A DNA stretch of 64,000 nt from Betaproteobacteria bacterium (GTDB lineage: Bacteria > Pseudomonadota > Gammaproteobacteria > Burkholderiales > Burkholderiaceae_C): contig JADJWD010000005.1 of assembly GCA_016716535.1 (NCBI GenBank), positions 545,385 to 609,384 of the forward strand. The letters are read 5' to 3'. Position numbers and translations under genes: made by a program. Numbering within the stretch: position 1 is the first letter of the stretch; each line of letters starts with the position of its first letter. The notes beneath the pieces were generated by a model. The model made no database searches. It had not been told where the DNA came from and was given only the letters and a program-made list of their open reading frames with translations. Shown piece by piece: positions 1 to 53,172 of the stretch.

Positions 1-47
1 TTGCCGAACTCGCGGCGCGGATTGCGCCGACGATGCAGGCCCGTTAG

Positions 48-1493
48 TCAGTCCGCGCCGAGCGCCGGCGCCAGGCGCGCGGGGTCCGCAGGTGCAGAGG
101 CCGCGCTGCGCGCGCCATCGGATGCCACAGCGATCTCGCCGCGCCCAAGCGCCGCCTCCGCCGCCACCCGATCCAGCGTCGGACTCGGCCAGCCGAGCAG
201 CGCGCTGGCGCGATCGGCGTGGTCGAGCAGCTCATTGCGGTCGCGCGCGCCGAGGTGCACGTAGCCGTAGTGGTGGCTGCCGGTCCACTTGAAGTCGCGC
301 GCCAAGGCGCTGCCGTGCTTCGGAAAGGCCAGCATCAGCGCCTCGGGGAAAGCGTGCGCGAGCGCGGCGCGCTGCGCCGGCTGCGGCACCGGCGGCACGT
401 GCGCCGGGTCGAACGAGCGGTAGACCAGGCTCGCGGCGATGTTGGCGTTCGGCTCGCAGCCGGGTGCGCTCAGCGCATCGCGGCCGTGCGCCAGCGCCAC
501 CGCCATGGCGTGCGGATCGAGCCCGCGCACGCGCCGGTAGAGGTCGCCGAACTGCGACGCCAGGCGCGGGTTGCACTCGATCACCGTCAGGCGGTCGCTC
601 GCCGCGTCGTGGAAGAACTCGAGGTTGAACATGCCGTGGCGGTAGCCGATCGCAGCGAGGAAGCGCCGCGCCACGTCGAGCGCGCGCCGCTGCGCTGGCG
701 CCGCCAGGCGGCTCGGCAGCTCCCAGCGCATGAAGGCTTGCGTGCCCGGGTACATCACCGCGTCGACGACGCCCAAAGCGTGCACCTGCCCGTTGTCGAC
801 CCAGCCGTCGAGGTTGTACTGCGCGTATTGCGCCACTGGCGGCGGCACCGGCTCCTCCAGCAGCATGCGGTGCGCGCTGCCGGCCTCCGGCAGGCGCGCG
901 CGGCACAGGCGGTCGAACGGGTCGACGAGGTGGCGGATGATCCACAGCTCGCGCCGGCCGAAGCGCGTGTGCGCCTGCAACGCATCGCGGTCGCGCACCT
1001 CGCGCGCCAGCACCGAGAAGGCGGCCTTCACCGGCTTGACGAACGCGGGGTAGGTGAGGCCGGGCGGGATGTCGTCGCCGTACGCGGCGGGCAGCGGCGC
1101 GAACGGCAGGTTCGCCTCGGGCGCCACCTGCGCGAGCACACGCCGCGCATGCAGCTTGTGCTGCGCGGCGAGGATGCTCTCGGGCGGCGTGCCTGGCAGC
1201 TTCAGCTTCTCGGCCACCAGCGCCGCGGCCAGCGCGCCGAAGTGCTCCTGCTGCGACAGCACCGCCTGCCAGCGCCGCCGCCGGCCGCGCGCGGCCTGCG
1301 CGGCGGCGAAGCGCTCGTGGTCGTACAGCGGCAGGCCGAGGTTGCTCGGGAAGCTGAAGAGGTCGAAGCCGGCGTGGTCGAAGTTCGGCGTGCCGGGTTG
1401 CGCCGCCAGCCGCTTCAAAGCGAGCCGGTCCCAGTCGTAGGCGAAGAGCCAGCCGGCGCGCGCTGAAGATCGTGGGGCGAAGAAGCTCGGCAC
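48..1493 (-). CDS. ATP-grasp domain protein, function unknown
   Basis: 481-aa ORF with an ATP-grasp-like core (FVKPVKAAFSVLAREV; MFNLEFFHD...RLTVIECNPRLASQF). Divergent from egtD. Confidence 0.6.
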   Translation of the reverse strand: MPSFFAPRSSARAGWLFAYDWDRLALKRLAAQPGTPNFDHAGFDLFSFPSNLGLPLYDHERFAAAQAARGRRRRWQAVLSQQEHFGALAAALVAEKLKLPGTPPESILAAQHKLHARRVLAQVAPEANLPFAPLPAAYGDDIPPGLTYPAFVKPVKAAFSVLAREVRDRDALQAHTRFGRRELWIIRHLVDPFDRLCRARLPEAGSAHRMLLEEPVPPPVAQYAQYNLDGWVDNGQVHALGVVDAVMYPGTQAFMRWELPSRLAAPAQRRALDVARRFLAAIGYRHGMFNLEFFHDAASDRLTVIECNPRLASQFGDLYRRVRGLDPHAMAVALAHGRDALSAPGCEPNANIAASLVYRSFDPAHVPPVPQPAQRAALAHAFPEALMLAFPKHGSALARDFKWTGSHHYGYVHLGARDRNELLDHADRASALLGWPSPTLDRVAAEAALGRGEIAVASDGARSAASAPADPARLAPALGAD

Positions 1494-1729
1494 GGTGTCG
1501 GCTGACTATCAAGCGGGAATCAAGCTGGGATCAAGTCGTGGTCGGGCCGCAGCCACGCGCGCACGGGCATGCAGCTTGCCTCCCGGCGCCTTCACGCCGG
1601 GCCGGGCGTCGAGGGACTTCATCTGCGGCATCGGGGCATCTCCTGGCGATGCGGGTGGGTCGTCGCGCAGGGTGCGACTCTATCGTCGCCGCTGCTAGAG
1701 TGCGCCGGCCGCTCCCTGCGGACAGTACG

Positions 1730-2719
1730 ATGCCCACACCGCTTTTCTTCCAGCTGGAGTCGATGTCCGCCGAAGCGCTGGCCGCCGAGGCGGCCGCGGG
1801 CCTGCGGGCCAGCCCGGCGGCGGTGTCGCCGAAGTTCTTCTACGACGCATTCGGCTCGCGCCTCTTCGACGCGATCACCGAGCTCGACGAGTACTACCCG
1901 ACGCGGGTCGAGGCCGGCATCTTTGCCGCCGACGCCCAGGCGATCGCCGATGCGGCGCTGTCGGCCAGCGGCCCGGCGCCGATGCTCGTCGACCTCGGCG
2001 CGGGCAACTGCGCGAAAGCCGCGCGCCTGTTCCCGGTGCTCGCGCCGCGCCGCTACGTGGCCGTCGACATCTCGGTGGACTACCTGCGCGATGCGCTGGC
2101 CGCTTTGCAGCGGGCGTGGCCGCAGATGGAGCTGGCCGGCGTCGGGCAGGACTTCGCCTCGCACCTGGCACTGCCGGCGGCGCTGGCTGCGCCGCCCGGC
2201 ACCGGCACGCTCGTTTTCTATCCTGGTTCGAGCATCGGCAACTTCGCGCCGGCCGAGGCGCTGCGGCTGTTGCGGCAGATGCATGCGCTGGCGGCACAAG
2301 CGGGTCAAGGCGGCAAGGGCGGCCTGCTCATCGGCGCCGACCTCGTGAAGGACGTGCACGTGCTCGAGCGCGCCTACGACGACGCGCTCGGCGTCACCGC
2401 GGCGTTCGACCTCAACCTGTTGCGCCGGCTGAACGTGCTGCTCGGCGCGGACTTCGATCTGCGTCAGTGGCGGCATGTTGCCCGCTTCGATACGCAGCAC
2501 TCGCGCATCGAGATGCACCTGCGGGCGCGCGAGGCGCTGACGGTGCGCTGGCCGGGCGGCGAGCGGCGATTCGCGGCCGGCGAGGGCATCCACACCGAGA
2601 ACTCCTACAAGTGGCAGCCCGGGGCGTTCGAGGCGCTGCTGCGCGAGGCCGGCTACACGCAGGTGCGCCGCTTCACCGATGCGCGCGGCTGGTTCGGCGT
2701 CTTCGTCGCGGCGGTGTGA
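1730..2719 (+). CDS. egtD: L-histidine N-alpha-methyltransferase (hercynine synthase, EgtD family)
   Basis: EgtD signature KFFYDAFGSRLFDAITELDEYYPTR and SAM-binding LVDLGAGNCAKA. Start moved to the ATG at 1730; the upstream part of ORF 1472..2719 is Arg/Ala-rich noise. Confidence 0.85.
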   Translation: MPTPLFFQLESMSAEALAAEAAAGLRASPAAVSPKFFYDAFGSRLFDAITELDEYYPTRVEAGIFAADAQAIADAALSASGPAPMLVDLGAGNCAKAARLFPVLAPRRYVAVDISVDYLRDALAALQRAWPQMELAGVGQDFASHLALPAALAAPPGTGTLVFYPGSSIGNFAPAEALRLLRQMHALAAQAGQGGKGGLLIGADLVKDVHVLERAYDDALGVTAAFDLNLLRRLNVLLGADFDLRQWRHVARFDTQHSRIEMHLRAREALTVRWPGGERRFAAGEGIHTENSYKWQPGAFEALLREAGYTQVRRFTDARGWFGVFVAAV

Positions 2720-2731
2720 ACGTCACTGCAC

Positions 2732-3994
2732 CTACAAAGCGCAGCTGCGGAAGCCCGCCGGCACGTCGCTGCGGTGCGCGGGGAAGAAGTTGCGGTAGCG
2801 CGGGTGGCGCATGCGCGGCTGCGTCATGAACGAGGCGCCGCGCAGCACCGGGCGGCCGTCGAACCACAGCGCCGAGTAGTCGCGATAAGGGTGCGGCGTG
2901 AAGCCCGAGAACGGCGTGAACGGGCTCGCGGTCCACTCCCACACCGCGCCCCACCCGAAGGCCGCGCCGCCGGTGAACGCGGCGCGTTCCCACTCGGCCT
3001 CGGTCGGCAGGCGGCGGCCGGCCCAGCGGCACCAGGCCTCGGCTTCGTGCAGCGTCAGGTGGCAGGCGGCGTCGCGCGGGTCGAGCGCAGCCCAGCGACC
3101 GTGCCGCAGGCGCTGCCAGCCGCCGGACGCACCGGACGACGCGCCGGACTTGGGCCGCAAGTAGCGCGGCCACGGCGCGGGATGTGTGCGCCGCCAGGCC
3201 CAGCCGGCGTCGCTCCACCAGCGCCGCTCGTGGTAGCCGCCGGCCTCGACGAACGGCAGCACGTCGGCCCAGCGCGCCACCTGCGCGTCGATGCGGTAGG
3301 CGGCAGTCGGCACGTCGGCGCGGCCGACCTCGTTGTCGAAGACGAAGCCGCGAGCCGTGGTGCCTTCGCCGCAGCCGAGCGTCCACGTGCCCGCGTCGAA
3401 CGCCAGCTCGGCCGCCGGCTCGGGCAGCGGCCGCGGCTGCCAGCGCGGGTCGGCGATCGCGATGCCGAGGCCCTGCGCCATGTACAGCGCCGCCTCGTGG
3501 TGCATGTCCTCGTGCATCAGCGACAGGCGATGGAAGTACAGCGCGTCGTCATCGTCGGGCGTGCGCTCGAGCAGCCGCAGCGACTGCGCCAGTTGCGCCG
3601 CGAGGTCGGCGCGTGTCGCCGCGGCGTCGGGCAGGGGCAGCGTCCAGCGGCTGTCGTGCGCCACGCGGCCGGAGTGATAGAGCGCATCGGCGCCAGCGCG
3701 CAGCGGCGGGTGCCGCACCACGTCGGGGTCGGCGCGCACGCCGTCGGCGCGCGCCGGGTTGCGTTCGATCCAGTACTCCTGGAACCAGCCGATGTGGCCC
3801 AGTTCCCACAGCGGCGGGTTCAGCTCGGCGCGCAGCGGCACCACGAGGTCGGGCCGCGCTTTCTCGTAGGCGGCAAAGGTGTCCAGCGTGTCGCGCCGGC
3901 TGGCCGCGAGCGCGCGGGCCAGCGCCTCGGCGCCGCCGTGGCGCGCGGCGTGCGCCTCGGCGCCCTCGCCGGGCAACGCCGGCTCGGTCATCAT
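2732..3994 (-). CDS. senA: EgtB-like DinB/FGE-sulfatase-fold enzyme, probable selenoneine synthase SenA
   Basis: HIGWFQEYWI (DinB-like N-terminus) and a C-terminal FGE-sulfatase-type region (WEWTASPFTPFSGFTPHPYRDYS...GASFMTQPRMRHPRYRNFFP). Adjacent to the senB-like/selD pair. Start uncertain: tandem ATGs at 3994/3991 chosen, ORF open to 4141. Confidence 0.7.
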   Translation of the reverse strand: MMTEPALPGEGAEAHAARHGGAEALARALAASRRDTLDTFAAYEKARPDLVVPLRAELNPPLWELGHIGWFQEYWIERNPARADGVRADPDVVRHPPLRAGADALYHSGRVAHDSRWTLPLPDAAATRADLAAQLAQSLRLLERTPDDDDALYFHRLSLMHEDMHHEAALYMAQGLGIAIADPRWQPRPLPEPAAELAFDAGTWTLGCGEGTTARGFVFDNEVGRADVPTAAYRIDAQVARWADVLPFVEAGGYHERRWWSDAGWAWRRTHPAPWPRYLRPKSGASSGASGGWQRLRHGRWAALDPRDAACHLTLHEAEAWCRWAGRRLPTEAEWERAAFTGGAAFGWGAVWEWTASPFTPFSGFTPHPYRDYSALWFDGRPVLRGASFMTQPRMRHPRYRNFFPAHRSDVPAGFRSCAL

Positions 3995-4070
3995 CGACGC
4001 TGCCGACGCCGTCACCCTTTTCGCCGCTGTCGTTCTCACTGCCGCTACGGCCACCGATCCGTCCTCACAC

Positions 4071-5138
4071 GTGCCTGCCAAGCCCTGCATCGTCATCGTC
4101 ACGCCGGCGCTGGCCGAGGCCAACAACGGCAACTGGCGCACGGCCCGCCGTTGGGCCGCGATGCTGTCGCCAGCTTACCGCGTACGGCTGACGAAGCACT
4201 GGACCGCCGGCGAGGGCGCGGCTGCCGGCGACGTGCTGATGATCGCGCTGCACGCGCGCCGCTCGGCGGCGTCGGTCGCCGCCTGGCGCGCCGCGCAGGG
4301 TGACCATGGCGACGGCGGCAGCGCGCCGCTGCTGCTGGTGCTGACCGGTACCGACCTCTATCGCGACATCGACACCGATACCGACGCGCGCCGCTCGCTG
4401 GCGCTGGCCGACCGGCTGGTCGTGCTGAACGAACTCGGCGCGGCCCGCCTGCCCGAGGCGCTGCGCGGCCGCTGCGCGGTGGTGCTGCAGTCGAGCCCGG
4501 CGCGCCGCGCGGTGGCCACGAAGCCCGAGCGCTACCTGCGCGCGCTGATGGTCGGGCACCTGCGCGGCGAGAAGGATCCGGCGACCTGGTTCCGGGCCAT
4601 CGCACGGCTGGCCGCGCGCACCGACCTGCGCTTCGACCACATCGGCGGCGCGCTCGATGCCACGCTCGCCGAAGCGGCGCGTGCGCTGATGGCGCAAGTG
4701 CCCGCCTACCGCTGGCTCGGCGAGCGCACGCACGGCGAAGTGCGCCGGCGCATCGCCGCCGCGCACGTGCTCGTACACCCGAGCGTGATGGAAGGCGGCG
4801 CGCAGGTCGTCATCGAGGCCATTCGCTCGGGCACGCCGGTGCTCGCCTCGCGCATGGATGGCAACGTCGGCTTGCTCGGCGCCGTCTACGGCGGCTATTT
4901 CGCGGTCGGCGACGACGCGGCGCTGGCCGCCCTGCTCGAGCGCGCGCGCGACGACCCGGCTATGCTGCCGGCCCTCGTGCGGCAGATCGAGCGCCGCGCA
5001 CCGCTGTTCGCGCCCGAGGCCGAGGCGCTCGCGCTGCACCGGCTGGTCGGCGAGTTGCTGGCCGGCGCGGCGGCATCGCGAGGTGCCGTCGCCGCCACCG
5101 CCACGCCGCCCGCCGAAGTTGTTGGAGACCCCCGATGA
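4071..5138 (+). CDS. senB: GT-B glycosyltransferase, SenB-type selenosugar synthase candidate
   Basis: N-terminal IVIVTPALAEANNGNWRTARRW and a C-terminal GT1-like EGGAQVVIEAIRSGTPVLASR. TGA overlaps the selD ATG (ATGA at 5135-5138). GTG start at 4071 is inferred; the ORF upstream of it overlaps senA antisense. Confidence 0.65.
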   Translation: MPAKPCIVIVTPALAEANNGNWRTARRWAAMLSPAYRVRLTKHWTAGEGAAAGDVLMIALHARRSAASVAAWRAAQGDHGDGGSAPLLLVLTGTDLYRDIDTDTDARRSLALADRLVVLNELGAARLPEALRGRCAVVLQSSPARRAVATKPERYLRALMVGHLRGEKDPATWFRAIARLAARTDLRFDHIGGALDATLAEAARALMAQVPAYRWLGERTHGEVRRRIAAAHVLVHPSVMEGGAQVVIEAIRSGTPVLASRMDGNVGLLGAVYGGYFAVGDDAALAALLERARDDPAMLPALVRQIERRAPLFAPEAEALALHRLVGELLAGAAASRGAVAATATPPAEVVGDPR

Positions 5139-6223
5139 ACGCCCCCGAGAAACCCGCGGCGATGGCCGCCCCGCCGAGCGCCGAGCCGCGCCTGACCTCC
5201 CTTTCACACGGCGGCGGCTGCGGCTGCAAGATCGCGCCGGGCGTGCTGTCCGAGATCCTCAAGGGCACGGCGGCGATGCCGGTGCCCAAGGAGTTGCTCG
5301 TCGGCATCGAGACCGCCGACGACGCCGCCGTCTACCAGCTCAACGACGAGCAGGCGCTGATCGCGACGACCGACTTCTTCATGCCGATCGTCGACGACCC
5401 GCACGACTTCGGCCGCATCGCGGCGACCAACGCGATCAGCGACGTCTACGCGATGGGCGGCCGGCCGATCCTCGCGCTGGCGCTCGTCGGCATGCCGATC
5501 AACGTGCTGTCGACCACCACGATCGGCCGCATCCTCGAAGGCGGTGCGTCGGTGTGCCGGGCCGCCGGCATCCCGGTGGCCGGCGGGCACACGATCGACT
5601 CGGTCGAGGCGATCTACGGCCTCGTCGCCCTCGGCCTCGTGCACCCGAAGCACGTGAAGCGCAACGCCGACGCGCGCGCGGGCGACGTGCTCGTGCTCGG
5701 CAAGCCGATCGGCGTCGGCGTGATGAGCGCGGCGCTTAAGAAGGGGCGCCTGTCGGACGCCGGCTACGCGCAGATGATCGCCAGCACGACGAAGCTGAAC
5801 ACGCCCGGCCCCGATCTTGCGCAGCTCGACGGCGTGCACGCGATCACCGACGTCACCGGCTTCGGCCTCGCCGGGCATGCGCTCGAGATGGCGCGCGGCG
5901 CCGGCTGCGAGGTACAGCTCGACTGGCCGGCAGTGCCGCAACTCGAAGGCGTGCGCGCGCTCGCCGCCGAGGGGCTGGTGACCGGCGCGTCGGGGCGCAA
6001 CTGGGCCGGCTACGGCGCCGACGTGGCGCTGCCGGCCGGCTTCGCTGCCGAAGACCGCGCGCTGCTCACCGACCCGCAGACGAGCGGCGGCCTGCTTGTT
6101 GCCTGCGCGCCCGAGGCGCTGGACGCGGTGCTCGCCGTCTTCGCCCGGCACGGTTTCGCGCAGGCCGCGGTGGTCGGCCGCGTGCGTGCCGCGGCGCGCG
6201 CCGGCGTGACCGTGACCGCGTGA
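5135..6223 (+). CDS. selD: Selenide, water dikinase (selenophosphate synthetase), Cys-type; senC role in this context
   Basis: SelD N-terminal motif SHGGGCGCKI (Cys, not a TGA-encoded Sec) and an AIR-synthase-like fold (TTDFFMPIVDDPHDFGRIAATNAISDVYAMGG). Confidence 0.9.
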   Translation: MNAPEKPAAMAAPPSAEPRLTSLSHGGGCGCKIAPGVLSEILKGTAAMPVPKELLVGIETADDAAVYQLNDEQALIATTDFFMPIVDDPHDFGRIAATNAISDVYAMGGRPILALALVGMPINVLSTTTIGRILEGGASVCRAAGIPVAGGHTIDSVEAIYGLVALGLVHPKHVKRNADARAGDVLVLGKPIGVGVMSAALKKGRLSDAGYAQMIASTTKLNTPGPDLAQLDGVHAITDVTGFGLAGHALEMARGAGCEVQLDWPAVPQLEGVRALAAEGLVTGASGRNWAGYGADVALPAGFAAEDRALLTDPQTSGGLLVACAPEALDAVLAVFARHGFAQAAVVGRVRAAARAGVTVTA

Positions 6224-7515
6224 CGATCGAGCCGCACGCGACGGTGCTGCCGGGCGGCGTGCGGCTGCTCGTCGGCCGCGCGCCGCATGCCGGCACCTGC
6301 AGCGTCGCGGTGTTCGTGCGCTGGGGCAGCGCGCACGAGAGCCCGCGCACCAACGGCATCGGCCACGTGCTCGAGCACATGGCCTTCAAGGGCACGGCGG
6401 TGCCCGGCGGCTTCGGCCGGCCGCTCGTGCGCGACGCGCGCCAGGTCAACCTGGATGCCGAGCGCCTGGGCGCCGAGGTCAACGCGCACACCGACAAGGA
6501 CCACACCGCGTTCTACATGCGCGGCCTGCCCGAGCACGCCGGCCGCATGCTGCGCATGCTGGCCGAGATCGTGCTGCACCCGAGCCTGCCCGCCGACGAG
6601 CTGGAGCGCGAGCGCCAGGTGCTGCTGCAGGAGTTCGCCGAGGACGAGGACGATCCGGTCGCCACGGCCTTCAAGCTCTTCGACAAGGCCTCGTTCGGCA
6701 TGCACCCGGCGGCGCAGCCGGTGATGGGCACGCGGCGCAACCTCGAGCGCTTCACGCGCGACGATCTCGTCGCGCACCGCGCCGCCGGCTACCTGGCCAC
6801 GCAGGTGGTGGTCGGCGTCGTCGGCGCCGTGCGGCCCGACGAGATGCAGCGCGAGGCCGAGCAGGCCTTCGCCGCGACGCCGCCCGGCGCCGCCGCGCCG
6901 GTGCCTGAGCCGGCCTGGCGCGGCGAGGTGCTGACGCGTGCGCTGCCGGGTTCGAGCCAGTCGCATCTGGCGCTCGGCTTCCCGGTGCCTTCGCGCCGCG
7001 CCGACGACCCGGTGGCGACCGTCGCCGCCGCGCTGCTGGGCGAGGGGATGAGCTCGCCGCTCCTGGACCGCGTGCGCGAGCAGCGGGGCCTGGCCTACTA
7101 CACCGCCTGCTCGGCCGACGTGCTGGACATGTGCGGCCAGTTCGTCATCGAGGCGAGCATGGCGCCCGACGACGCGGTGCCGCTGGTGCGCGAGGTGATG
7201 GCGCTCGTGCGCGAGCAGGCCGACAAGCCCGCGCCGCAAGAACTGGAGCGCGCGCGCCGCCAGCTCGCCGTGCGCGCGCTGCGCGCGCAGGAGCGTGGCC
7301 TGCGCTGGCTGGAAGACCTGGCGCTCGAGTGGCTGGCCACTGGCCGCCTGCGCCCCGAGGCCGAGCGCACCGGCCGCCTGCAAGCCGTGAGCGCCGCCGA
7401 GGTGCGCGACTTCTTTGCCGGCCTGGTGCGCTACACGCCGGCGCTGGCGCTCACCGGCAGCGTTGCGCGCGGCATGCGCGAGAGGCTGCGGGAGGCGCTG
7501 GCCGCGCCGCGCTGA
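6220..7515 (+). CDS. M16 (pitrilysin/insulinase) family zinc peptidase
   Basis: HxxEH zinc motif in GIGHVLEHMAFKG. The GTG start overlaps the selD stop (GTGA at 6220-6223). Confidence 0.8.
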   Translation: MTIEPHATVLPGGVRLLVGRAPHAGTCSVAVFVRWGSAHESPRTNGIGHVLEHMAFKGTAVPGGFGRPLVRDARQVNLDAERLGAEVNAHTDKDHTAFYMRGLPEHAGRMLRMLAEIVLHPSLPADELERERQVLLQEFAEDEDDPVATAFKLFDKASFGMHPAAQPVMGTRRNLERFTRDDLVAHRAAGYLATQVVVGVVGAVRPDEMQREAEQAFAATPPGAAAPVPEPAWRGEVLTRALPGSSQSHLALGFPVPSRRADDPVATVAAALLGEGMSSPLLDRVREQRGLAYYTACSADVLDMCGQFVIEASMAPDDAVPLVREVMALVREQADKPAPQELERARRQLAVRALRAQERGLRWLEDLALEWLATGRLRPEAERTGRLQAVSAAEVRDFFAGLVRYTPALALTGSVARGMRERLREALAAPR

Positions 7516-7521
7516 GCCCCC

Positions 7522-8196
7522 TCAACATGCGTGCAGCAGCGCCACCAGCTGCGCCTGGCTGTGCGTGCCGGTCTTCTCGTACATCTCGCCGACGTGTGTG
7601 CGCACGGTCGAGATCTTCACGCCCAGCGCTTCGGCCGCACTCGCCGGGCGCATGCCCTGGCACAGCATCTCCGCGAGCCGCGCCTGCGTGCGCGTGAAGC
7701 GGAAGCGCCGGCGCATCGCGTCGGCGCGCGTCAGCACGACGCGCTCGATCGTTGCCAGCACCCAGGTCGCCATGCCGACGCCGGCGTCGTGCACCGCCAT
7801 CGGCTTCAACGTCATCTGCATCGCCGGCCCGTCGGCCTCCAGCGCCAGCGTCACGCTGCGGCCGGCGGCGAGTTCGGCGTGCCACTTGCTGATCGGCACC
7901 CAGCGGCCGCCCTGGCGCACCGCGAGGCGGCCGCTCGCGTCGAGCCACAGGCCTTCGCAGCGCTCGATGCGGCGCGTCGCGGCCGGGTTGGATTCGAGCA
8001 CCGTGCCTTGCGCGTCGGCGACGACGAGCGGCGTCTCGAGGTGCTGCATCAGCGCGTGGCCGAGCGCGGCCAGGCGCAGCGAGCGCGCGCCGCTGGGGGC
8101 GGCAACCGGGGCGGGGGCCGGTGCGGCGAAGCGACTGAGCATCGATGGGGCCGAAAGCGTTGCTTCGGGGCTGCGGGGGATCGAGTGGAACTGCAT
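7522..8196 (-). CDS. LuxR/GerE-family transcriptional regulator with a sensor-like N-terminal domain
   Basis: C-terminal HTH FTRTQARLAEMLCQGMRPASAAEALGVKISTVRTHVGEMYEKTG. Confidence 0.75.
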   Translation of the reverse strand: MQFHSIPRSPEATLSAPSMLSRFAAPAPAPVAAPSGARSLRLAALGHALMQHLETPLVVADAQGTVLESNPAATRRIERCEGLWLDASGRLAVRQGGRWVPISKWHAELAAGRSVTLALEADGPAMQMTLKPMAVHDAGVGMATWVLATIERVVLTRADAMRRRFRFTRTQARLAEMLCQGMRPASAAEALGVKISTVRTHVGEMYEKTGTHSQAQLVALLHAC

Positions 8197-8294
8197 GGCG
8201 AACCTCCTGTGGCAGTGCGATGCATTGCACCGCAGGGGGCCCGCCGGGCGAATGACACCAAGGTATCCACTGCGGGAGGGAGGTGCGCGGCCGG

Positions 8295-8320
8295 GGCTTC
8301 GACAGGCTCAGCCCGAACGG
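8295..8320. repeat. REP-like element copy (GGCTTCGACAGGCTCAGCCCGAACGG)
   Basis: Same about-25-nt motif recurs twice at 13841-13886. Confidence 0.5.
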
Positions 8321-8324
8321 ATCA

Positions 8325-9938
8325 TCAAAACCACCCGTGCACCGACAACTGCGCCCAGCGGCGCCAGTAACGCGCGCCGGAGGTGCCGCTGCTGGCCAGC
8401 CCCAGCGACTGGCCGGAGCCACCTGCGGCGGCGCGCAGGCGCCAGCCGGGGGCGGTGTCCAGGCCGGCGGCGATTTCCCACAAATGCGGCGCGCCGCGGC
8501 TCGCGTTGCCGGCGGTGTCGACCTCACGCGAGCGGGCGAGCCCCGCGCGCGCTTCCAGCGCCCACGGCCGCTGCTCCCAGCTGGCGCCGGCGACGATGCG
8601 CGCCTCGTCATAGCGGCGCGGGTTCCAGTAGCCGCGCGCATCGGCGTTGGCGCCGAGGCTCGTGCGCTCGAGCCGGTGCCACTCGCCGCCGAGGGTGAGG
8701 CGCGGGCGCGTGACGAGCGCCCACTCGGCGCGGCCGAAGAGGCGCTGGCGCGCCGTGCCGTCGTCGAAGCGCAGCCGCGCGGCGCTGCCGGCGAGTGCCA
8801 GCCGCTCGTCGCGGCGCCAGTCCAGGCCGATCGACGTGACATCGACCGTCACGCGGTTGGCGAACGCGCGCGGCGTCTCGATCAGTTCGCGCGAGTGCTC
8901 GGCATCGACGCGCCAGCGGTCGGCAGGGATCCACTTGACGCGCGCCGTCGAGGTGAACGGGTGCCAGCCGCCGACGCTGCCACCGCCGACGCGATGCGTG
9001 CGCAGCACGAGCTGCGGCCACCAGGTGCCGGTGGGCGAATCGGGTTCGCCGAGACGCAGCCGCGCGGCCGCTTCGAACGTGGTTGCCGAAGCGGCGCCGA
9101 AGTCGTCGTCGAGCGCGACGCGCCGGCCGCCGAGCTCGACCGCCGCGCCGGCCAGTGGCTGCATGCCGGCGCCAAGCGACAGCGCCCGCGTGCGCAACGT
9201 GTCGCGGTCCTCGGTCGCCTCGAGCCCGCCGAAGGCGTACGGGGCCACGTCGCGCGCGACGCGCCAGTCGCGCAGCCATTGCGACTCGCTGCCGGTGGCC
9301 TCACGCAGCAGTGGCCAGGCGCGGTCTTCGTAGCCGGCCCAGCGCCAGGCGCGGGCGAGGTCGAGCCGCTCGGCCTCGGTGACGGGCGGCGACCATCGGC
9401 GGAAGACGGCGATCGCGTCGCGGTGGCGGCCGGCGGTGTTCAGCGCCTGCCCGAGCGCCCAGCCGATCGCGCGGTCGTTCGGGTGCAGGCGTGATGCCTC
9501 TTCGAAGAGCGGCAGTGCCGTCGTCGCGTCGGTCGACCACAAGGTCTGCCAGGCGAGCGAGGGCACGATGTCGGCGCGGCGCGCCGGCGCCACGGCGAGC
9601 GCCTGCCGGTACAGCGCCGCGGCGCGCGCGTTGCGGTCGGCCCAGCCGAAGACACGCGCGGCCTCGATCAGCAGGTCGGCGTCGGTGCCGGCGCCTTCGA
9701 CGAGCCGCTCGTACAGCGGCAACGCGGTGGCGAAGTCGCGCCGGTCGGTGGCGGCGCGGGCGCGTGCACGCAGCGTGGCGGGGTCGGGTTCGGTCGTGGC
9801 GGTGTCGCCTTCAGTAGCGCCGGTCGCGCCACCTGCACCGCGGGCTGCGGCACCCGCTTGCGGCGATGCGCTCTGCGCCGCGGCCACCAACGGCCACGCC
9901 GCGAGCATCGCAATGCAAACCGCTGCGAGCCGCCTCAT
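8325..9938 (-). CDS. TPR-repeat plus C-terminal beta-barrel outer-membrane protein (PgaA-like exopolysaccharide porin)
   Basis: Signal peptide MRRLAAVCIAMLAAWPLVAAAQS, TPR-like N-terminal half, and a beta-strand-rich C-terminal half ending in the aromatic OMP signature ...LSVHGWF. The ATG overlaps the GT2 stop (ATGA at 9935-9938). The longer 989-aa ORF is an artefact. Confidence 0.6.
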   Translation of the reverse strand: MRRLAAVCIAMLAAWPLVAAAQSASPQAGAAARGAGGATGATEGDTATTEPDPATLRARARAATDRRDFATALPLYERLVEGAGTDADLLIEAARVFGWADRNARAAALYRQALAVAPARRADIVPSLAWQTLWSTDATTALPLFEEASRLHPNDRAIGWALGQALNTAGRHRDAIAVFRRWSPPVTEAERLDLARAWRWAGYEDRAWPLLREATGSESQWLRDWRVARDVAPYAFGGLEATEDRDTLRTRALSLGAGMQPLAGAAVELGGRRVALDDDFGAASATTFEAAARLRLGEPDSPTGTWWPQLVLRTHRVGGGSVGGWHPFTSTARVKWIPADRWRVDAEHSRELIETPRAFANRVTVDVTSIGLDWRRDERLALAGSAARLRFDDGTARQRLFGRAEWALVTRPRLTLGGEWHRLERTSLGANADARGYWNPRRYDEARIVAGASWEQRPWALEARAGLARSREVDTAGNASRGAPHLWEIAAGLDTAPGWRLRAAAGGSGQSLGLASSGTSGARYWRRWAQLSVHGWF

Positions 9939-11236
9939 GCCGTCTTCCCCGTGCGCGCCGTCTGCCAGCGCACCGGCTGCGCCTTCGGGCGCTTGAACAG
10001 GTACGGCATCGCGATCACCGTCGTCAGCGCCAGCAACGCCCAGTAGACGATCGGGTACCACACCGCATACGGCAGGTAGCGCAGCACCTGCGGGTCGTAG
10101 CGGCGGTCGATGAGCACGCCGGTGGTCAGCTGGGCGATGCACAGCGTCGCGATCGACATGCCCCAGAGGTTCGGGATCGGGCTTGCGCCGATCGGCGGCA
10201 CGCCGGCCAGGTACGACACGGTCCACAGCGTCGTCAGGAACACGAAGCACAGCGACCACAGGATCGACAGCGCCGACTCGACGAACACCGGCCACAGCCG
10301 CCGGCAGTTCCAGGTGGTGAGCACGTCGCGGTGCTTGTGCAGCACCTGCGCGAGGCCGCGCGCCCAGCGCAGGCGCTGGTGGAAGTGGCCGCGGTAGCTC
10401 TGCGGCACCGTCATCCAGCAGATCGCGCGCGGCTCGTAGCGCACGTCGTAGTGGCGCTTTTGCAGCTTCCACGTCAGCTCGATGTCCTCGGTGGGCATGT
10501 TCGGGCTGAAGCCGCCGACGTCGGCCACCGCGCTCTTGCGCAGCGCCGCGACGACGCCCGAGACGGTGACGATGCGGCCCCAGATGCGCTGCGCGCGGCG
10601 CAAGAGGCTGATGATCGAGCTGAACTCCACCGACTGCAGCCGCGCGAGGAAGTTCTTCGTGTTCAGCACGCGCGGGTTGCCGGTGACGGCGGCCACCCGC
10701 GGCGAATCGAAGTGCGGCACGATCCAGTTCAGCAGCTGCGCCTCGGGCTCGGCGTCGGCATCCAGCGCCAGCAGGATTTCGCCGCGCGCCAGCGGCAGCG
10801 CGTCGTTCAAGGCCATCGCCTTGCCTTCGTTGACGTTCTTGCTGACCAGGCGCAGCCGCCGGTCGGCCAGGAGCGGCGCGAGCGCGGCGACCGTGCCGTC
10901 GCGCGAGCCGTCGTCGATGACGAGCACCTCGAAGCGCGGGTAGTCGAGCGCCAGCATCGCGCGCACCGAGCGCGCGATCACCGCCTCCTCGTTGTGTGCC
11001 GGCACGAGCAGCGTGACGAAGGGGCGCTCGCCTGCCTCGCGTCCACCGGCCCCGTGCGCGCCGGCGGCCGCATCGGGCGGCGGCGGGGGTGTCGCGTTCT
11101 CCCAGCGCATGCGGAACAGCAGCGCGGTGATGATCCACATGATGCTGGTGACGATCGGGTAGGCGGCGAAGAAGACCAGCACGATCCAGTACGGCGGCGA
11201 CGACTGGACCGCCAGCAGCAGCGACTCGAGGCTCAT
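9935..11236 (-). CDS. Family-2 processive glycosyltransferase, PgaC/IcaA-like (poly-beta-1,6-GlcNAc synthase type)
   Basis: Motifs VLVIDDGSRDGT, LALDADAEPE, PTEDIELTWKL and QRLRWARG, with flanking TM helices. Confidence 0.8.
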   Translation of the reverse strand: MSLESLLLAVQSSPPYWIVLVFFAAYPIVTSIMWIITALLFRMRWENATPPPPPDAAAGAHGAGGREAGERPFVTLLVPAHNEEAVIARSVRAMLALDYPRFEVLVIDDGSRDGTVAALAPLLADRRLRLVSKNVNEGKAMALNDALPLARGEILLALDADAEPEAQLLNWIVPHFDSPRVAAVTGNPRVLNTKNFLARLQSVEFSSIISLLRRAQRIWGRIVTVSGVVAALRKSAVADVGGFSPNMPTEDIELTWKLQKRHYDVRYEPRAICWMTVPQSYRGHFHQRLRWARGLAQVLHKHRDVLTTWNCRRLWPVFVESALSILWSLCFVFLTTLWTVSYLAGVPPIGASPIPNLWGMSIATLCIAQLTTGVLIDRRYDPQVLRYLPYAVWYPIVYWALLALTTVIAMPYLFKRPKAQPVRWQTARTGKTA

Positions 11237-11682
11237 GAGTGCGCGGCGGGCTCGTCGCCAACGGGGTTTGCCGCGGCCGCGCCCGGGTCGGCACCGTGCG
11301 CCACGTAGCGCTTGTGCTCGCCCTCGACGACGATCAGCACCCGCTGCGCATCGGCCAGCGCCTCGAAGTCGCCGGTCACCGCGCGGCCGTTGAAGTCGAC
11401 CGTGTAGCGCAGCGTCGCCGCCGGCACGGCGCGCCGCGGCCCCTTGCGGCGGTGGATGCCGCGGTTGTGCAGGATCCACGAGACGGTGACGACCGGCACG
11501 ACGACGGCCGCGCCGACGACCAGTGCGCGCAGCGTGTCGAAGTCGGGGTGCCCGGCCAGCACGCGGTGCCAGCCCCAGACGAACAGCGCCCAGCCGGCGA
11601 TGATCGCCAGCACGTGCGCCGCGCGCTGCCAGCCGCCGGGGGCGCTGGCACGCGGCGAGGTCAAGCCCGTGCCGGCGTGCAC
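11233..11682 (-). CDS. Small two-TM inner-membrane protein (PgaD-like role possible)
   Basis: 149 aa with two hydrophobic helices (VLAIIAGWALFVWGW; LVVGAAVVVPVVTVSWIL) followed by a basic patch. Its stop overlaps the GT2 ATG (ATGA at 11233-11236). Confidence 0.45.
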   Translation of the reverse strand: MHAGTGLTSPRASAPGGWQRAAHVLAIIAGWALFVWGWHRVLAGHPDFDTLRALVVGAAVVVPVVTVSWILHNRGIHRRKGPRRAVPAATLRYTVDFNGRAVTGDFEALADAQRVLIVVEGEHKRYVAHGADPGAAAANPVGDEPAAHS

Positions 11683-12686
11683 TCAGTGCGTGGCCCGCTC
11701 GGCCCAGGCAGCCGCCGCAGGCGTTGCAGGCGCGCTCGGGCCGCGGGCAGGCCGGGCAGGGCGAGCAGGGCCATGAGGCCGATCAGCGCCAGCGCCCAGG
11801 CCGGCGGCTCGGGCACCTCGGAGGCGCTGACCAGGTGCGTCGTCGGCACCGAGGTCCACTCGCAATCGGCGGTGCAGCCGCTTGCCCAGCGCAGGTCGAC
11901 GACGCCGGCGCCGAGGTGGTTCCAGGCGCCGAGTTCGAAGCCGTACAGCCCCGCGTCGAGCACGAGGTTCTCGGCGAAGCCCACGCGCAGCGGCGGGTTC
12001 AGGTAGTCGCGGCCGATTGCCAGCTCGTCGCCGCCGGCGCCGATCAGGCGGAAGAAGAAGCCGTCGTCGTGCAGCACGCCGAAGTTGTACTCGCCGGGGT
12101 CGGTGATGCGGATGTAGCCCGAGTAGCGCGCGGTCCAGTTGTGCTGCGCCAGCGCGCCGGCCTCGGCATTACCGCAGTCGCCCAGGTCGGGCGCGGGCGA
12201 GAAGAACGGCAGCAGCGGCACCGTGCCGCCATGGCATTCGTTGTAGCGTGAGTTGGCATGGCTGACGCCGGGCAGCACGTCAGTGAAGCTCTCGACGATG
12301 GCGCCGCTGGCGGCGCTGCTCTGCCCGGCGGCGGCCTGCTGCACGGCGAGCCAGTCGACCTGGCCCCACAGCCCCGTGCCCCAGCGGAAGGTACTGACCG
12401 GCACGCCGCTGCCGAAGGTGCCGGCGTCTTCGTTCCACAGCACGGCGCTGCCGGCCCAGGCGTTGTCGATGCGATGGAAGGCCGCATCGGCGCCTGAGCC
12501 GTCGGCGAAGGTGCCCGCGTACTGCGGCGCCAGCACATACGCGGCCCCGGCCGGCGCGATGCACGCCAGCGAAGCGATGGCCGCGGCGGCGGCGCGCAGT
12601 GCGCGGCTCGAGCGGCTGAGCCTGCGACGATCAAAGTGCCGTGACGGCGTGAACGAGTTCATGTCGTGCCCATGGGAATCCATCAA
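11661..12686 (-). CDS. Secreted PEP-CTERM-anchored protein with a PA14/GLEYA-like domain
   Basis: N-terminal signal (AAAAIASLACIAPAGAA), PA14-like YSGYIRITDPGEYNFGVLHDDGFFFRL, and a C-terminal sorting signal VPEPPAWALALIGLMALLALPGLPAARAR (PEP motif, TM helix, Arg cluster). Confidence 0.75.
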   Translation of the reverse strand: MMDSHGHDMNSFTPSRHFDRRRLSRSSRALRAAAAAIASLACIAPAGAAYVLAPQYAGTFADGSGADAAFHRIDNAWAGSAVLWNEDAGTFGSGVPVSTFRWGTGLWGQVDWLAVQQAAAGQSSAASGAIVESFTDVLPGVSHANSRYNECHGGTVPLLPFFSPAPDLGDCGNAEAGALAQHNWTARYSGYIRITDPGEYNFGVLHDDGFFFRLIGAGGDELAIGRDYLNPPLRVGFAENLVLDAGLYGFELGAWNHLGAGVVDLRWASGCTADCEWTSVPTTHLVSASEVPEPPAWALALIGLMALLALPGLPAARARLQRLRRLPGPSGPRTECTPARA

Positions 12687-12726
12687 CCCCTCAGAGTAGC
12701 CGACGATAACGCGGCGATGCCGCCGA

Positions 12727-12746
12727 AATGCGCCGTCGGCGTGCCG
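12727..12746 (-). promoter_or_regulatory. Candidate sigma-54 (-24/-12) promoter for the PEP-CTERM protein operon
   Basis: Minus strand reads cGGCACGccgacgGCg. GG and GC have canonical spacing, and the -12 GC lies about 45 nt upstream of the ATG at 12686. The -12 flank is poor (no TTGC). Confidence 0.25.
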
Positions 12747-12808
12747 ATGTTGCGTTGCGCGAAGCAGCGCAGGGCGATGGTGCGCTCGCCGATGACAGAA
12801 TCCCCCGC

Positions 12809-13816
12809 ATGAAAGTACTGGTCACCGGCGCCGCCGGCTTCATCGGCAGCACCGCCTCGCTGCGCCTGCTGGCGCGTGGCGACGAGGTCGTCGGCCTGGA
12901 CAACCTGAACGACTATTACGACGTTCGGCTGAAGGAGGCGCGCCTCGCGCGGCTGACGCCGAACGCGCGCTTTCGCTTCGCGAAGCTCGACGTCGCCGAC
13001 CGCGCCGGCATGGAGGCGCTGTTCGCGAAGGAGCGCTTCGACCGCGTCATCCACCTCGCCGCGCAGGCGGGCGTGCGCTACTCGCTGAAGAACCCGCAGG
13101 CCTACGTCGACAGCAACGTCGTGGGCTTCATGAACATCCTCGAAGGTTGCCGGCACCACGGCGTGCAGCACCTCGTCTACGCCTCCAGCTCCAGCGTCTA
13201 CGGCGGCAACACGAAGATGCCGTTCTCCGAGCACGACAGCGTCGACCATCCGGTCAGCATGTACGCGGCGACGAAGAAGGCCAACGAGCTGATGGCGCAC
13301 ACGTACAGCCACCTGTTCGGGCTGCCGACGACGGGCCTGCGCTTCTTCACCGTCTACGGGCCCTGGGGGCGGCCGGACATGGCGCTGTTCCTGTTCACGA
13401 AGGCGATCCTCGAAGGCAAGCCGATCGACGTGTTCAACCACGGCCGCATGCAGCGCGACTTCACCTACGTCGACGACATCGTCGAAGGCGTGATCCGCGT
13501 GCTCGACAAGACGGCGACGCCGAACCCGGCCTACCGCGCCGAGACGCCCGATCCGGGCACGAGCAACGTGCCGTTCCGCGTCTTCAACATCGGCAACCAC
13601 AACCCGGTGCCGCTCTTGGACTTCATCGGCTGCATCGAAGAGTCGCTCGGCAGCAAGGCCGAGAAGAACCTGCTGCCGCTGCAGGACGGCGACGTGCCGG
13701 CGACCTACGCCGATGTCGATGCGCTGAAGGACTGGGTCGGCTTCACGCCGGCCACCGACATCCGCATTGGCATCGGCCGCTTCGTCGACTGGTATCGCGC
13801 GTACTACAAGGTCTGA
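12809..13816 (+). CDS. NAD-dependent nucleotide-sugar epimerase (UDP-glucuronate 4-epimerase family)
   Basis: [14 protein letters not shown] Rossmann motif, catalytic YAATKKANE (YxxxK), and overall SDR extended-family layout. Confidence 0.85.
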
Positions 13817-13821
13817 CGCGC

Positions 13822-13890
13822 GAGACCGTTCGCAATCAAGCCCTTCGACAGGCTCAGGGCGGCTTCGACAAGCTCAGCCCGAACGGTTCT
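13822..13890. repeat. REP-like element pair forming a hairpin between convergent genes
   Basis: Two tandem copies of CTTCGACA(G/A)GCTCAG(G/C)(G/C)C, flanked by the inverted repeat ACCGTTCG (13825-13832) / CGAACGGT (13880-13887). Related to 8295-8320. Confidence 0.5.
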
Positions 13891-13895
13891 TGGCG

Positions 13896-14765
13896 TCAGC
13901 GCGGCGGCGGCGCCGCCTGCCGCGCCTCGTCGAGCAGCGCACGCAGGTGCTGCACCGGTATCGCGTAGGTGATGCCGGTTGGCGCCGACAGCGCCGTCTC
14001 GCGGCTGCCGCGCACGAGCACCATGTTGACGACGCCGATCACCTCGCCGGTGTCGGCGTCGAGCACCGGCCCGCCGCTGTTGCCGGGGTAGGCAGTGGCG
14101 TCGAGTTGCAGCACCTCGAAGTTGCCGGCGCGCAGCCGCGCCAGCGCGCGTGGGTCGAGCTGCGCGGCGGTGGGCGCCGGCAATGCCACGGTGGTGACCG
14201 ACGCGACGATGCCGCGGTGCGTGACCGGCGAGAAGCCGAGCGCGCCGCCGATCGGGTAGCCCATCAGCGCGATCGTCTTGCCTTCTTCCGCACGCCGCGC
14301 GCCGGCCAGCGCCAGCGGCGGCAGCGCCGGGCCATCCAGGCGCAGCAGCGCCACGTCGTGCGCGCGGTCGGTGGACACGAGCGTCGCGAAGCGCACGTCG
14401 CCGGCCTCGCGCCCGGGCGCCGCGTTCTGCGCCAGCACGGCCAGGCGCGCACCGGGCTCGATCTCATTCGGCAGCACGTGCGCATTGGTCGCGACGTGGT
14501 GGCCGTCGCCGACGACAAAACCGCTGCCGCGAAAGCCGAAGCGCGGCGTCGCTGTCGGGCTGTAGGTGCCGACCGGCAGCACCGAAGGCCGCGCGCGCGC
14601 GACGACGGCGCGTAGATCAGGTGTCGGCGTCGAAGCGGCCGCCGCGCCGGCACCCTGCGCCAGCGCGAGCGGCCCATGCGCGACGCCCGCCAGCGCCAGC
14701 ACCGCGGCGCCGAGCAGGCGCAGCGACATGGCCCGCACGTCGCTCACTGCCCGCGCGCCGCTCAC
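13896..14765 (-). CDS. Secreted trypsin-like serine protease (S1C/DegP-like, no PDZ domain seen)
   Basis: Triad contexts TNAHV, DVALLRL and GNSGGPV. Signal peptide MSLRLLGAAVLALAGVAHG (start may be 14729). Lies 5 bp downstream of prsT on the same strand. Confidence 0.8.
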   Translation of the reverse strand: MSGARAVSDVRAMSLRLLGAAVLALAGVAHGPLALAQGAGAAAASTPTPDLRAVVARARPSVLPVGTYSPTATPRFGFRGSGFVVGDGHHVATNAHVLPNEIEPGARLAVLAQNAAPGREAGDVRFATLVSTDRAHDVALLRLDGPALPPLALAGARRAEEGKTIALMGYPIGGALGFSPVTHRGIVASVTTVALPAPTAAQLDPRALARLRAGNFEVLQLDATAYPGNSGGPVLDADTGEVIGVVNMVLVRGSRETALSAPTGITYAIPVQHLRALLDEARQAAPPPR

Positions 14766-14770
14766 GCCGT

Positions 14771-43819: not shown

Positions 43820-45034
43820 ATGGACCGCCCGATCCGATCGCTGCTGTTCTCGACGCTGTATCCCAGCAGCGCGCGGCCGATTCACGGCATCTTCGTCGAG
43901 ACGCGCCTGCGCGAACTGCTGCAGACAGGCGGCATCGAGACGCGCGTCGTCGCGCCGGTGCCCTGGTTTCCGTCGACGAACCCGCGCTGGGGCGAATGGG
44001 CCCGCATGGCCAGCACGCCGGTGCAGGAGGTCCACAACGGCATCGAAGTGCATCACCCGCGCTACCCGCTGCCGCCCAAGTTGGGCATGACGATGGCGCC
44101 GCTGCTCATCGCCTTGGCCGCGGCGCCGGTGCTGCGCCGGCTGAGGCGTTCGGGCTTCGACTTCGACGTCATCGACGCGCACTACTACTACCCCGACGGC
44201 GTGGCGGCGGCGCTGCTGGCGAAATGGTTCGATCGGCCGGTGACGATCACGGCGCGAGGCACCGACCTCAATCTGATTCCCCAATACACGTTGCCCCGGC
44301 GAATGATTCAGTGGGCGGCCGGGCAGGCGCATGCCTCGATCGGCGTCAGCTCGGCACTGGTGGATGTCTTGCGCGGCTTGGGCCTTCCCGAAGAACGCTT
44401 GCACGTCATGCGCAACGGCGTGGACCTGCAACGGTTCCGGCCGGTGCCTCAACGCGAGGCGCGCGCGATGCTTGGCATCGCAGGCTCAGGGCCGCTGCTG
44501 CTGTCGGTGGGGCACCTCGTCGAGCTGAAGGGCCATCACCTCGTGATCGAAGCGTTGACGCGCTTGTTGCCGCATCACCCGGAAGCTCGGCTCGCCATCG
44601 TTGGTGCCGGTGAGGAGCGCGACCGTTTGATGGAACTGGCCCGCGCGCGGAACCTGAGCGAACGAGTCATCTTCGCCGGGCAGCAGCCTAACGATCGCTT
44701 GCAGACGTGGTACTCGGCAGCCGATGCACTGGTACTGGCCTCCAGCCGCGAAGGCTGGGCCAACGTCCTGCTCGAAGCCATGGCGTGTGGAACGCCCGTG
44801 GTCGCCACGGAAACGGGGGGCACGCCGGAAGTGGTGAGCCCGCAGGTCGGCGTGCTCGTGAGCCGTGACGCGGCGTCACTCGCGGCCGGTGTAGCCCGCC
44901 TGCTGGCAAACACTCCGAAACGCGCTGAAGTGCGCGCCTACGCCGAGACCTTCAGTTGGCGTGCCACGAGTGAGGCCCAGCTGCGGTTGTTCGGCCGTAT
45001 TGCGCATCAGAGAAGCGGCCTCTGCCATGCGTGA
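43820..45034 (+). CDS. Glycosyltransferase family 4
   Basis: LLFSTLYPSSARPIHGIFVETR N-terminus and a GT1 C-terminal motif REGWANVLLEAMACGTPVVATE. Confidence 0.75.
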   Translation: MDRPIRSLLFSTLYPSSARPIHGIFVETRLRELLQTGGIETRVVAPVPWFPSTNPRWGEWARMASTPVQEVHNGIEVHHPRYPLPPKLGMTMAPLLIALAAAPVLRRLRRSGFDFDVIDAHYYYPDGVAAALLAKWFDRPVTITARGTDLNLIPQYTLPRRMIQWAAGQAHASIGVSSALVDVLRGLGLPEERLHVMRNGVDLQRFRPVPQREARAMLGIAGSGPLLLSVGHLVELKGHHLVIEALTRLLPHHPEARLAIVGAGEERDRLMELARARNLSERVIFAGQQPNDRLQTWYSAADALVLASSREGWANVLLEAMACGTPVVATETGGTPEVVSPQVGVLVSRDAASLAAGVARLLANTPKRAEVRAYAETFSWRATSEAQLRLFGRIAHQRSGLCHA

Positions 45035-46337: not shown

Positions 46338-46342
46338 GCACT

Positions 46343-47296: not shown

Positions 47297-47405
47297 CTGT
47301 TGATCATCGTGAGGAAACGCAGGGCTGCGGGCGATGATCGTTTGGCGTGTGAAGCACGCCGTAATTTGGATGACAGGTTCGGCATTTAGTTGGAAGGTTC
47401 TCCGT

Positions 47406-48134: not shown

Positions 48135-48212
48135 CTTTTCGGGTTTTGGGCGGTTCCGCTTGCTGGTTACACTTTGCATTGACGCGGCCCAGAAGAGGGA
48201 GACGAGGACGCG

Positions 48213-49601: not shown

Positions 49602-49682
49602 GTACCGGGCGCGCTCGTCGTGACCGGCATCGCCGCACGCAGGCAACGCTGTCCTAGTCTTGAGTTGGCCAAAATTCTTGAG

Positions 49683-53124: not shown

Positions 53125-53172
53125 CCTTGCTCCCGCACTCGGCTCACGCCGGCCCGCTCCGCACGCGGCACG

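Follow-up and report, generated by a model that had tools for sequence, protein, structure and literature searches.

A four-gene block on a betaproteobacterial contig

The stretch of DNA analysed here, which we call the window, comprises 64,000 nucleotides (nt) of contig JADJWD010000005.1 (assembly GCA_016716535.1; positions 545,385 to 609,384 of the forward strand) and carries a block of four adjacent genes, egtD, senA, senB, and selD (senC), at window positions 1730-6223. The host is an uncultured Rubrivivax-like betaproteobacterium, and the block lies in its chromosome. On the sequence evidence set out below, the block is very probably a functional selenoneine cluster (senA, senB, and senC/selD) equipped with its own egtD.

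The first gene, egtD (1730..2719, plus strand), encodes an S-adenosylmethionine (SAM)-dependent L-histidine N-alpha-trimethyltransferase, the producer of hercynine. Convergent with it, and with the two stop codons separated by 12 nt, is senA (2732..3994, minus strand), encoding a non-haem-iron selenoxide synthase predicted to join hercynine C2 to a selenosugar through a C-Se bond. Divergent from senA and 76 nt away is senB (4071..5138, plus strand), which encodes a GT-B Se-glycosyltransferase expected to convert selenophosphate and UDP-GlcNAc or UDP-Glc to a 1-seleno-sugar. Its TGA stop codon (5136-5138) overlaps the ATG (5135-5137) of selD (5135..6223, plus strand), a gene for a Cys-type selenide, water dikinase that produces selenophosphate, and selD is translationally coupled to senB through this ATGA overlap. 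All of these elements of the initial annotation, namely the coordinates and strands of the four open reading frames (ORFs), their convergent and divergent arrangement, and the TGA/ATG overlap, were found, as were the peptides quoted in it (KFFYDAFGSRLFDAITELDEYYPTR in egtD, IVIVTPALAEANNGNWRTARRW in senB, and SHGGGCGCKI in selD).

The encoded proteins are 329 (EgtD), 420 (SenA), 355 (SenB), and 362 (SelD) amino acids (aa) long, and the same lengths came from gene calls made independently on five metagenome contigs of identical sequence. The ORFs have the strong third-position GC bias typical of real genes, in a genome of ~73% GC, and the locus is sequence-identical across five independent metagenome assemblies. 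Kayrouz et al. (2022) defined a sen cluster as an egtB homologue, a tigr04348 gene, and a selD gene, all within 5 kb of one another; senA, senB, and selD all fall in 2732-6223, within 3.5 kb.

Enzyme assignments and functional residues

We assigned the enzymes by the curated cut-offs of NCBIfam equivalog models, one for each proposed function, and all four proteins scored above them (E = 5e-101, 4e-144, 5e-125, and 8e-161). The four enzymes are identified by these matches, and their catalytic residues are retained. EgtD scored 337.9 bits against TIGR03438 (cut-off 290.9), matched PF10017 (E = 2.7e-94) and the structures of Mycobacterium smegmatis EgtD (E = 1e-56), and stayed below the threshold of the EasF model. 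The nine residues that we take to form its histidine pocket, including the Met252/Glu282 pair, are all conserved (Tyr39, Phe47, Tyr56, Asn166, Tyr206, Thr213, Met252, Glu282, and Ser284).

SelD scored 534.7 bits against NF002098 (cut-off 299) and 424.7 bits against TIGR00476 (cut-off 125), with E = 2.5e-96 to Escherichia coli SelD (3U0O). Comparison with what we take to be the functional residues of the E. coli enzyme (Cys17, Lys20, and the Asp ligands) aligns Cys29 and Lys32 of the HGGGCGCK motif with Cys17 and Lys20, identifying the protein as Cys-type, and shows the Asp ligands at 63, 80, 103, and 239 to be conserved together with Asn99.

The SenA protein scored 480.7 bits against NF041186 (cut-off 420) and is 57% identical to Variovorax paradoxus SenA (8RYZ/8K5I; E = 1e-121). 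The functional residues of V. paradoxus SenA and SenB are available from a structural study (PMC11237966), and all 10 of the SenA residues checked in the alignment are retained. The iron triad His67, His161, and His165 corresponds to V. paradoxus His71, His167, and His171, the catalytic Tyr370 to Tyr363, and the hercynine-binding Asn402 to Asn395, while Asn59, Glu64, and Arg116 correspond to the selenosugar-binding Asn63, Glu68, and Arg120; Arg408 is also kept.

The choice between SenA and the related EgtB was based on model scores together with signature residues. The protein falls under the cut-offs of the EgtB model TIGR03440 (206.7 versus 360 bits) and of the OvoA N-terminal model (92 versus 400 bits), and its matches to other solved structures are E = 1e-36 for OvsA and E = 1e-32 for EgtB. 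In SenA, the thiol-binding Arg87/Asp416 pair of EgtB is replaced by His and Phe/Tyr (10.1101/2022.04.13.486033). Here, Phe404, the counterpart of V. paradoxus Phe397, stands at the position of EgtB Asp416, and His113 occupies that of Arg87; because its motif AHDSRW aligns with V. paradoxus AHRTRW, His113 lies three residues ahead of Arg116 (EgtB Arg90). As had been proposed from the sequence at the outset, the EgtB-like protein is SenA and not a thiol-dependent EgtB. An ergothioneine (EgtB) reading was ruled out by the EgtB model score and the signature residues, and an ovoselenol (OvsA) reading by the difference between the OvsA and SenA matches, the presence of egtD, and the lack of ovsM in the window.

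The initial annotation had also taken the glycosyltransferase to be of the SenB type, which the searches bear out. The protein scored 416.6 bits against TIGR04348 (cut-off 300), with the next family at 99 bits, and shares 57% identity with V. paradoxus SenB (8JJQ/8RZ3), matching crystallised SenB at E values from 9e-95 to 1e-98. Its Lys168 corresponds to the proposed catalytic Lys158 of V. paradoxus, and Asn21, His61, Thr92, and Arg165 to Asn20, His58, Thr83, and Arg155 of the docked selenophosphate site. Of the UDP-sugar contacts, the protein keeps Gly20, Arg23, Thr24, Gln140, His221, the Glu-Gly-Gly motif, and Val246 but differs at positions 209, 214, and 235. Compared with the V. paradoxus proteins, both SenA and SenB contain short insertions of low complexity, and SenB also has a C-terminal tail.

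A proposed route to selenoneine

The four enzymes would together form a complete pathway. SelD would convert selenide and ATP to selenophosphate, to which SenB would transfer the sugar of UDP-GlcNAc (or UDP-Glc), with Lys168 cleaving the Se-P bond to leave 1-seleno-beta-GlcNAc. EgtD would trimethylate histidine to hercynine. SenA, with Fe(II) and O2, would then bond the selenium of the selenosugar to C2 of the hercynine imidazole, giving a selenoxide that would eliminate the sugar and, upon reduction, yield selenoneine. This chemistry is taken from the literature, and we think it very likely that the cluster is expressed and that it produces selenoneine.

The block of 4.5 kb had been predicted to be enough for selenoneine synthesis. 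Since the published in vitro reconstitution of selenoneine used exactly EgtD, SenA, SenB, and SenC (10.1101/2022.04.13.486033), it is reasonable to expect that these four genes would suffice, and the prediction is consistent with that work. Sufficiency can reasonably be said to presuppose that the cell supplies selenide, UDP-sugar, SAM, iron, and reductant.

Two observations weigh against a functional cluster. A putative selenate ATP-binding cassette (ABC) transporter, present in 14 of 14 comparable reference loci, is missing from the window, and selenium supply must therefore use another route. In addition, SenB is substituted at three UDP-contact positions (L209R, T214V, and H235Q). The contacts at 209 and 235 are backbone contacts in the V. 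paradoxus SenB structure (PMC11237966); the loss of Thr214 could change nucleotide-sugar binding.

Linkage of egtD to sen genes in related loci

We compared the block with 80 species-level loci centred on SenB relatives, sampled from genomes and metagenome-assembled genomes (MAGs) of Rubrivivax, Rhizobacter, Ideonella, Hydrogenophaga, Polaromonas, Rhodoferax, and Ramlibacter; the best SenB match in this sample is 80% identical, which places the source species outside it. In 44 of the 80 loci, egtD and senB are no more than 10 kb apart, and at least 14 of the 66 related species-level loci with enough flanking sequence share the layout of the window (egtD, senA on the opposite strand, senB, and selD). 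Linkage of egtD is common, not rare, in this clade. The initial annotation had drawn attention to the physical joining of egtD and the sen genes, which is indeed present here but is neither new nor unusual. The discovery study, with 827 sen clusters, already noted egtD in "a small subset" of them (10.1101/2022.04.13.486033), and we therefore regard the locus as an instance of a described cluster type. It is an uncharacterised member of that type, all four genes of which are named automatically by NCBI models.

Two variations on this layout were seen among the sampled loci. In SenB loci of Polaromonas, Rhodoferax, and Limnohabitans (L035, L039, L046, L049-L051, L054, L056, L058, L060, L066-L068, L071, L073, and L074), the only SelD-like gene is 32-38% identical to SelD of the window and lies downstream of senB at a distance of ~2.2 kb, separated from it by another gene, whereas other loci have a SelD that is 80-90% identical and abuts senB. 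A different layout, with egtD directly upstream of senB on the same strand, is found in L029, L037, L040, L052, L054, L060, and L062; a search of the 10 kb around senB detected no senA in these seven loci.

A divergent ATP-grasp gene and a conserved palindrome

Transcribed divergently from egtD is a candidate accessory gene (48..1493, minus strand) for a putative ATP-grasp-fold ligase of 481 aa. Its presence raises the alternative that the end product is a derivative of selenoneine or hercynine, with an ATP-grasp enzyme, co-regulated through a palindromic promoter region shared with egtD, ligating an amine or amino acid to the product or otherwise altering an intermediate. We consider this alternative unlikely, with evidence pulling in both directions. 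Sequence searches of Pfam, NCBIfam, and the PDB all remained below threshold (the best Pfam match was ATP-grasp_4, E = 0.017), and the assignment comes from the AlphaFold model (pLDDT 83), which has an ATP-grasp fold. The closest PDB folds, at TM 0.5-0.6, are L-amino-acid ligases (3VOT, YwfE/BacD, and RizA), biotin carboxylases, and PurK, a similarity that would suit a ligase role but is generic at 12-16% identity. Lys153/156 and Glu306-x-Asn308, the nucleotide and Mg motifs, are invariant in 40 homologues, which also favours such a role.

The gene neighbourhoods are likewise divided. Close homologues of the ATP-grasp gene are neighbours of sen, egtD, or selenate-transporter genes, and five arrangements were seen: the gene stands last in the transporter operon; it diverges directly from egtD, which is the situation in the window; it lies behind a DedA/VTT gene that is divergent from egtD (Rhizobacter sp. 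AJA081-3); it belongs to a co-directional string of VTT, ATP-grasp, YHS, and egtD genes (L030, a Rhodocyclales MAG, and L050, also Rhodocyclales); or it diverges from senA. The ATP-grasp gene is often followed by one for a YHS-domain "(seleno)protein" (NF041384). Among homologue-centred metagenome loci with at least 3 kb upstream, 15 of 28 contain sen or transporter genes, and this synteny suggests that the ATP-grasp gene is functionally linked to selenoneine. Against a part in the pathway, roughly half of the close homologues have no sen genes beside them, and only 12 of 61 SenB-centred loci contain the gene. The characterised V. paradoxus pathway requires no ATP-grasp enzyme (10.1101/2022.04.13.486033), and our literature search returned no paper tying such enzymes to selenoneine.

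Several relatives (L030, L085, L096, L113, and L117) have an ATP-grasp gene that is often flanked by DedA/VTT and YHS-domain "(seleno)protein" genes. L085 (Rhizobacter sp. AJA081-3, CP059067.1) has five extra genes at 11382-15576, beside its egtD-sen cluster and ATP-grasp gene, encoding a YHS "(seleno)protein", a DUF547 protein, a TPMT/TehB-type methyltransferase, an AhpC/redoxin protein, and another methyltransferase. Enzymes of the TPMT/TehB type are associated with the methylation of selenium and tellurium, and this gene group may be an extended selenium island.

The region between the ATP-grasp gene and egtD contains an imperfect palindrome of 25 bp, ACTCTATC-N9-CTAGAGT (1677..1701, no strand assigned), 28 nt before the egtD ATG. 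It is the single such site in the window, matching on both strands, where 0.00 were expected from 100 shuffles. The pattern ACTCTA(T/G)C...(C/A)TAGAGT recurs in ~30 distinct related loci, once per locus and always directly upstream of egtD, and has no further occurrence in the 1.93 Mb of related loci searched. We predict that the palindrome is likely a shared promoter or operator element, and its position between the two genes counts in favour of the derivative alternative. It could represent back-to-back divergent -10 boxes, with TGcTAGAGT reading as an extended -10 of egtD, or it could be the operator of a dimeric regulator.

A wider reading, which we put forward tentatively and regard as rather doubtful, is that the selenoneine cluster is central to a larger selenium regulon, as yet undescribed, in Burkholderiales and Rhodocyclales, with the palindrome and the ATP-grasp ligase as members. 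If true, a palindromic promoter/operator of 25-27 bp (ACTCTAnC...nTAGAGT) would be shared across the regulon, which would include the ligase, often with a DedA/VTT membrane protein and a YHS-domain "(seleno)protein". In that case the function of the ligase would be connected with selenium, possibly the ATP-dependent derivatisation of hercynine or selenoneine, and the window would represent a natural minimal version that kept the ligase and lost the selenate transporter.

Loss of a putative selenate transporter

In nearly all related loci, a four-gene ABC transporter operon (substrate-binding protein [SBP], ATPase, and two permeases; ~3.7 kb) is divergent from egtD, and in the six closest (L001, L002, L003, L017, L025, and L042), as in most others, it sits between the ATP-grasp gene and egtD. 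The binding protein of these relatives scores 396 bits (cut-off 250) on TIGR04553, the model named "putative selenate ABC transporter substrate-binding protein". The operon occupies 3810-7616 in L042, where the window has only 1494-1729; the ATP-grasp gene and egtD are just 236 nt apart, and none of the operon genes was found anywhere in the 64 kb. Within this gap, a minus-strand segment at 1589..1629 is 85% identical over 41 nt to codons ~55-70 of the L025 SBP gene, keeping the peptide pattern P-x-M-K-x-L-x-x-R-x-G-x-K. We tentatively interpret it as a probable deletion relic of the phnD-like (TIGR04553) SBP gene. By this comparison, the lineage has lost the transporter that its relatives carry. 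An assembly artefact was rejected as the cause of the gap, because five independent assemblies carry the same junction. The initial description of the block as "self-contained" thus holds for biosynthesis, but the lineage is without the dedicated uptake system of its relatives.

Such a deletion, with a probable relic left behind, is what one would expect if the cluster were a decaying remnant, unused since the transporter was lost. We regard decay as very unlikely, however, as all four ORFs are intact, their catalytic residues are conserved, the palindrome upstream of egtD is retained, and the locus is identical in sequence in the five assemblies. A second lineage, L087, whose ATP-grasp protein and EgtD are 78% identical to those of the window, has the same transporter-less layout, which also speaks against a decaying copy.

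Selenium or sulfur

Other genes of selenium or thiohistidine metabolism were sought throughout the window. Models for selA, selB, and selU had no match among its large ORFs, ARAGORN detected zero tRNAs in it (hence no tRNA-Sec), and egtA, egtC, egtE, and ovsM were not found there; nor were further selenium genes seen outside the block. The suggestion in the initial annotation that this SelD probably has no part in selenocysteine or selenouridine formation agrees with these negatives, which cover the 64-kb window as distinct from the remaining genome. It is highly improbable that the EgtB-like protein is a sulfur enzyme making an ergothioneine- or ovoselenol-type product, with SelD merely a neighbour that serves selenocysteine or selenouridine: SenA does belong to the same superfamily as EgtB and OvsA, but the model scores, the OvsA match, and the replacements at Asp416 and Arg87 described above, the translational coupling of selD to senB, and the gene content of the window all point away from it. 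Selenoneine synthesis by EgtD, SenA, SenB, and SelD remains our preferred interpretation of the block.

That interpretation adds one more uncultured betaproteobacterium to the likely selenoneine producers, and the four genes, as a compact cassette of 4.5 kb, could be cloned to produce selenoneine in a heterologous host. It leaves current understanding unchanged, the pathway, the enzymes, their structures, and occasional egtD linkage having been published in 2022-2024. Undescribed in the literature searched, or unlike the relatives, are the transporter loss, the recurrent ATP-grasp neighbour, and the palindrome upstream of egtD, and these could extend knowledge of how selenium is regulated and supplied for this pathway.

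Transcription units and the remainder of the window

At least three transcription units are expected in the block: egtD, senA, and senB-selD. The last probably also includes a gene for an M16-family zinc peptidase (6220..7515, plus strand; PF00675 and PF05193 matches, HxxEH motif present), whose GTG start overlaps the selD stop codon (GTGA) and which is probably co-transcribed with selD. This gene follows selD solely in the closest relatives (L001-L003, L017, L025, L042, and L087) and not in other sen loci; we therefore treat it as a neighbour and rejected it as a member of the pathway. In three Rhizobacter loci (L085, L136, and L138), an amidase gene is found after selD in its place. An Rfam search of positions 1-9000 identified no riboswitch or known RNA, with a single sub-threshold match that was unrelated. 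Consensus scans of 1-8500 returned zero sigma-70 promoter-like sites and one terminator-like site, located inside egtD, a number not above that in shuffled sequences.

Much of the remaining window is devoted to polysaccharide genes. At 8325-12686 (minus strand), an apparent operon contains a gene for a PgaC-like poly-beta-1,6-GlcNAc synthase (397 bits, just below the cut-off of 422), with genes for a PgaA-like TPR outer-membrane protein, a small membrane protein, and a PA14-like secreted protein as neighbours. A large XrtA/PEP-CTERM exopolysaccharide locus spans 14771-~55200 and includes genes for PrsT, PrsK, exosortase A with an EpsI domain, a chain-length determinant, a tyrosine kinase, and an amidotransferase, along with several stp glycosyltransferases and an O-antigen-ligase-like gene. 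The segment at ~44000-64000 is the part of the polysaccharide locus with glycosyltransferase, methyltransferase, and flippase genes, and it includes two Kelch-like repeat ORFs (57895-58827 and 59844-61733) and an ORF of 803 aa (55375-57786) that had no family match. Because GC drops in this segment from ~72% to ~64% and is lowest, at 59%, in the interval 46-48 kb, the composition suggests a horizontally exchanged variable cassette.

Comparison with known clusters

One of the systems compared is the ergothioneine cluster egtABCDE of Mycobacterium, which, like the block, has EgtD and an iron enzyme of the EgtB fold that acts on C2 of hercynine. The window lacks egtA, egtC, and egtE, its enzyme does not reach the EgtB cut-off, and the donor would be the selenosugar made by SenB and SelD in place of gamma-glutamylcysteine. 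The ovoselenol cluster (OvsA, OvsM, SenB, and SenC; PMC11030361) resembles the block in its SenB/SenC selenosugar route and its SenA-related iron enzyme. However, OvsA acts on histidine C5, whereas the window enzyme is SenA-like (1e-121 versus 1e-36), and ovs producers are mostly without egtD (PMC11030361), whereas the window has egtD and no ovsM.

The sen cluster of V. paradoxus DSM 30034, also from Burkholderiales, has senA divergent from senB and selD after senB, as does the window, and its SenA and SenB, each 57% identical to those described here, share their catalytic residues; structures for comparison are 8RYZ, 8K5I, 8JJQ, 8RZ3, and 8FBX. The two differ in that the window block includes egtD, convergent on senA, and in the three changed UDP-contact positions of SenB. 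Further counterparts are the clusters in which egtD and the sen genes are combined with a TIGR04553 transporter, found in Rubrivivax, Rhizobacter, Ideonella, Hydrogenophaga, and Polaromonas (e.g., L042, L001, and L025). These differ from the window in the four-gene transporter operon that they carry between the ATP-grasp gene and egtD. They have the same order and orientation of egtD, senA, senB, and selD and the same palindrome upstream of egtD; the closest encode proteins 72-88% identical to those of the window, and the six closest also share its ATP-grasp, M16, and LuxR neighbours.

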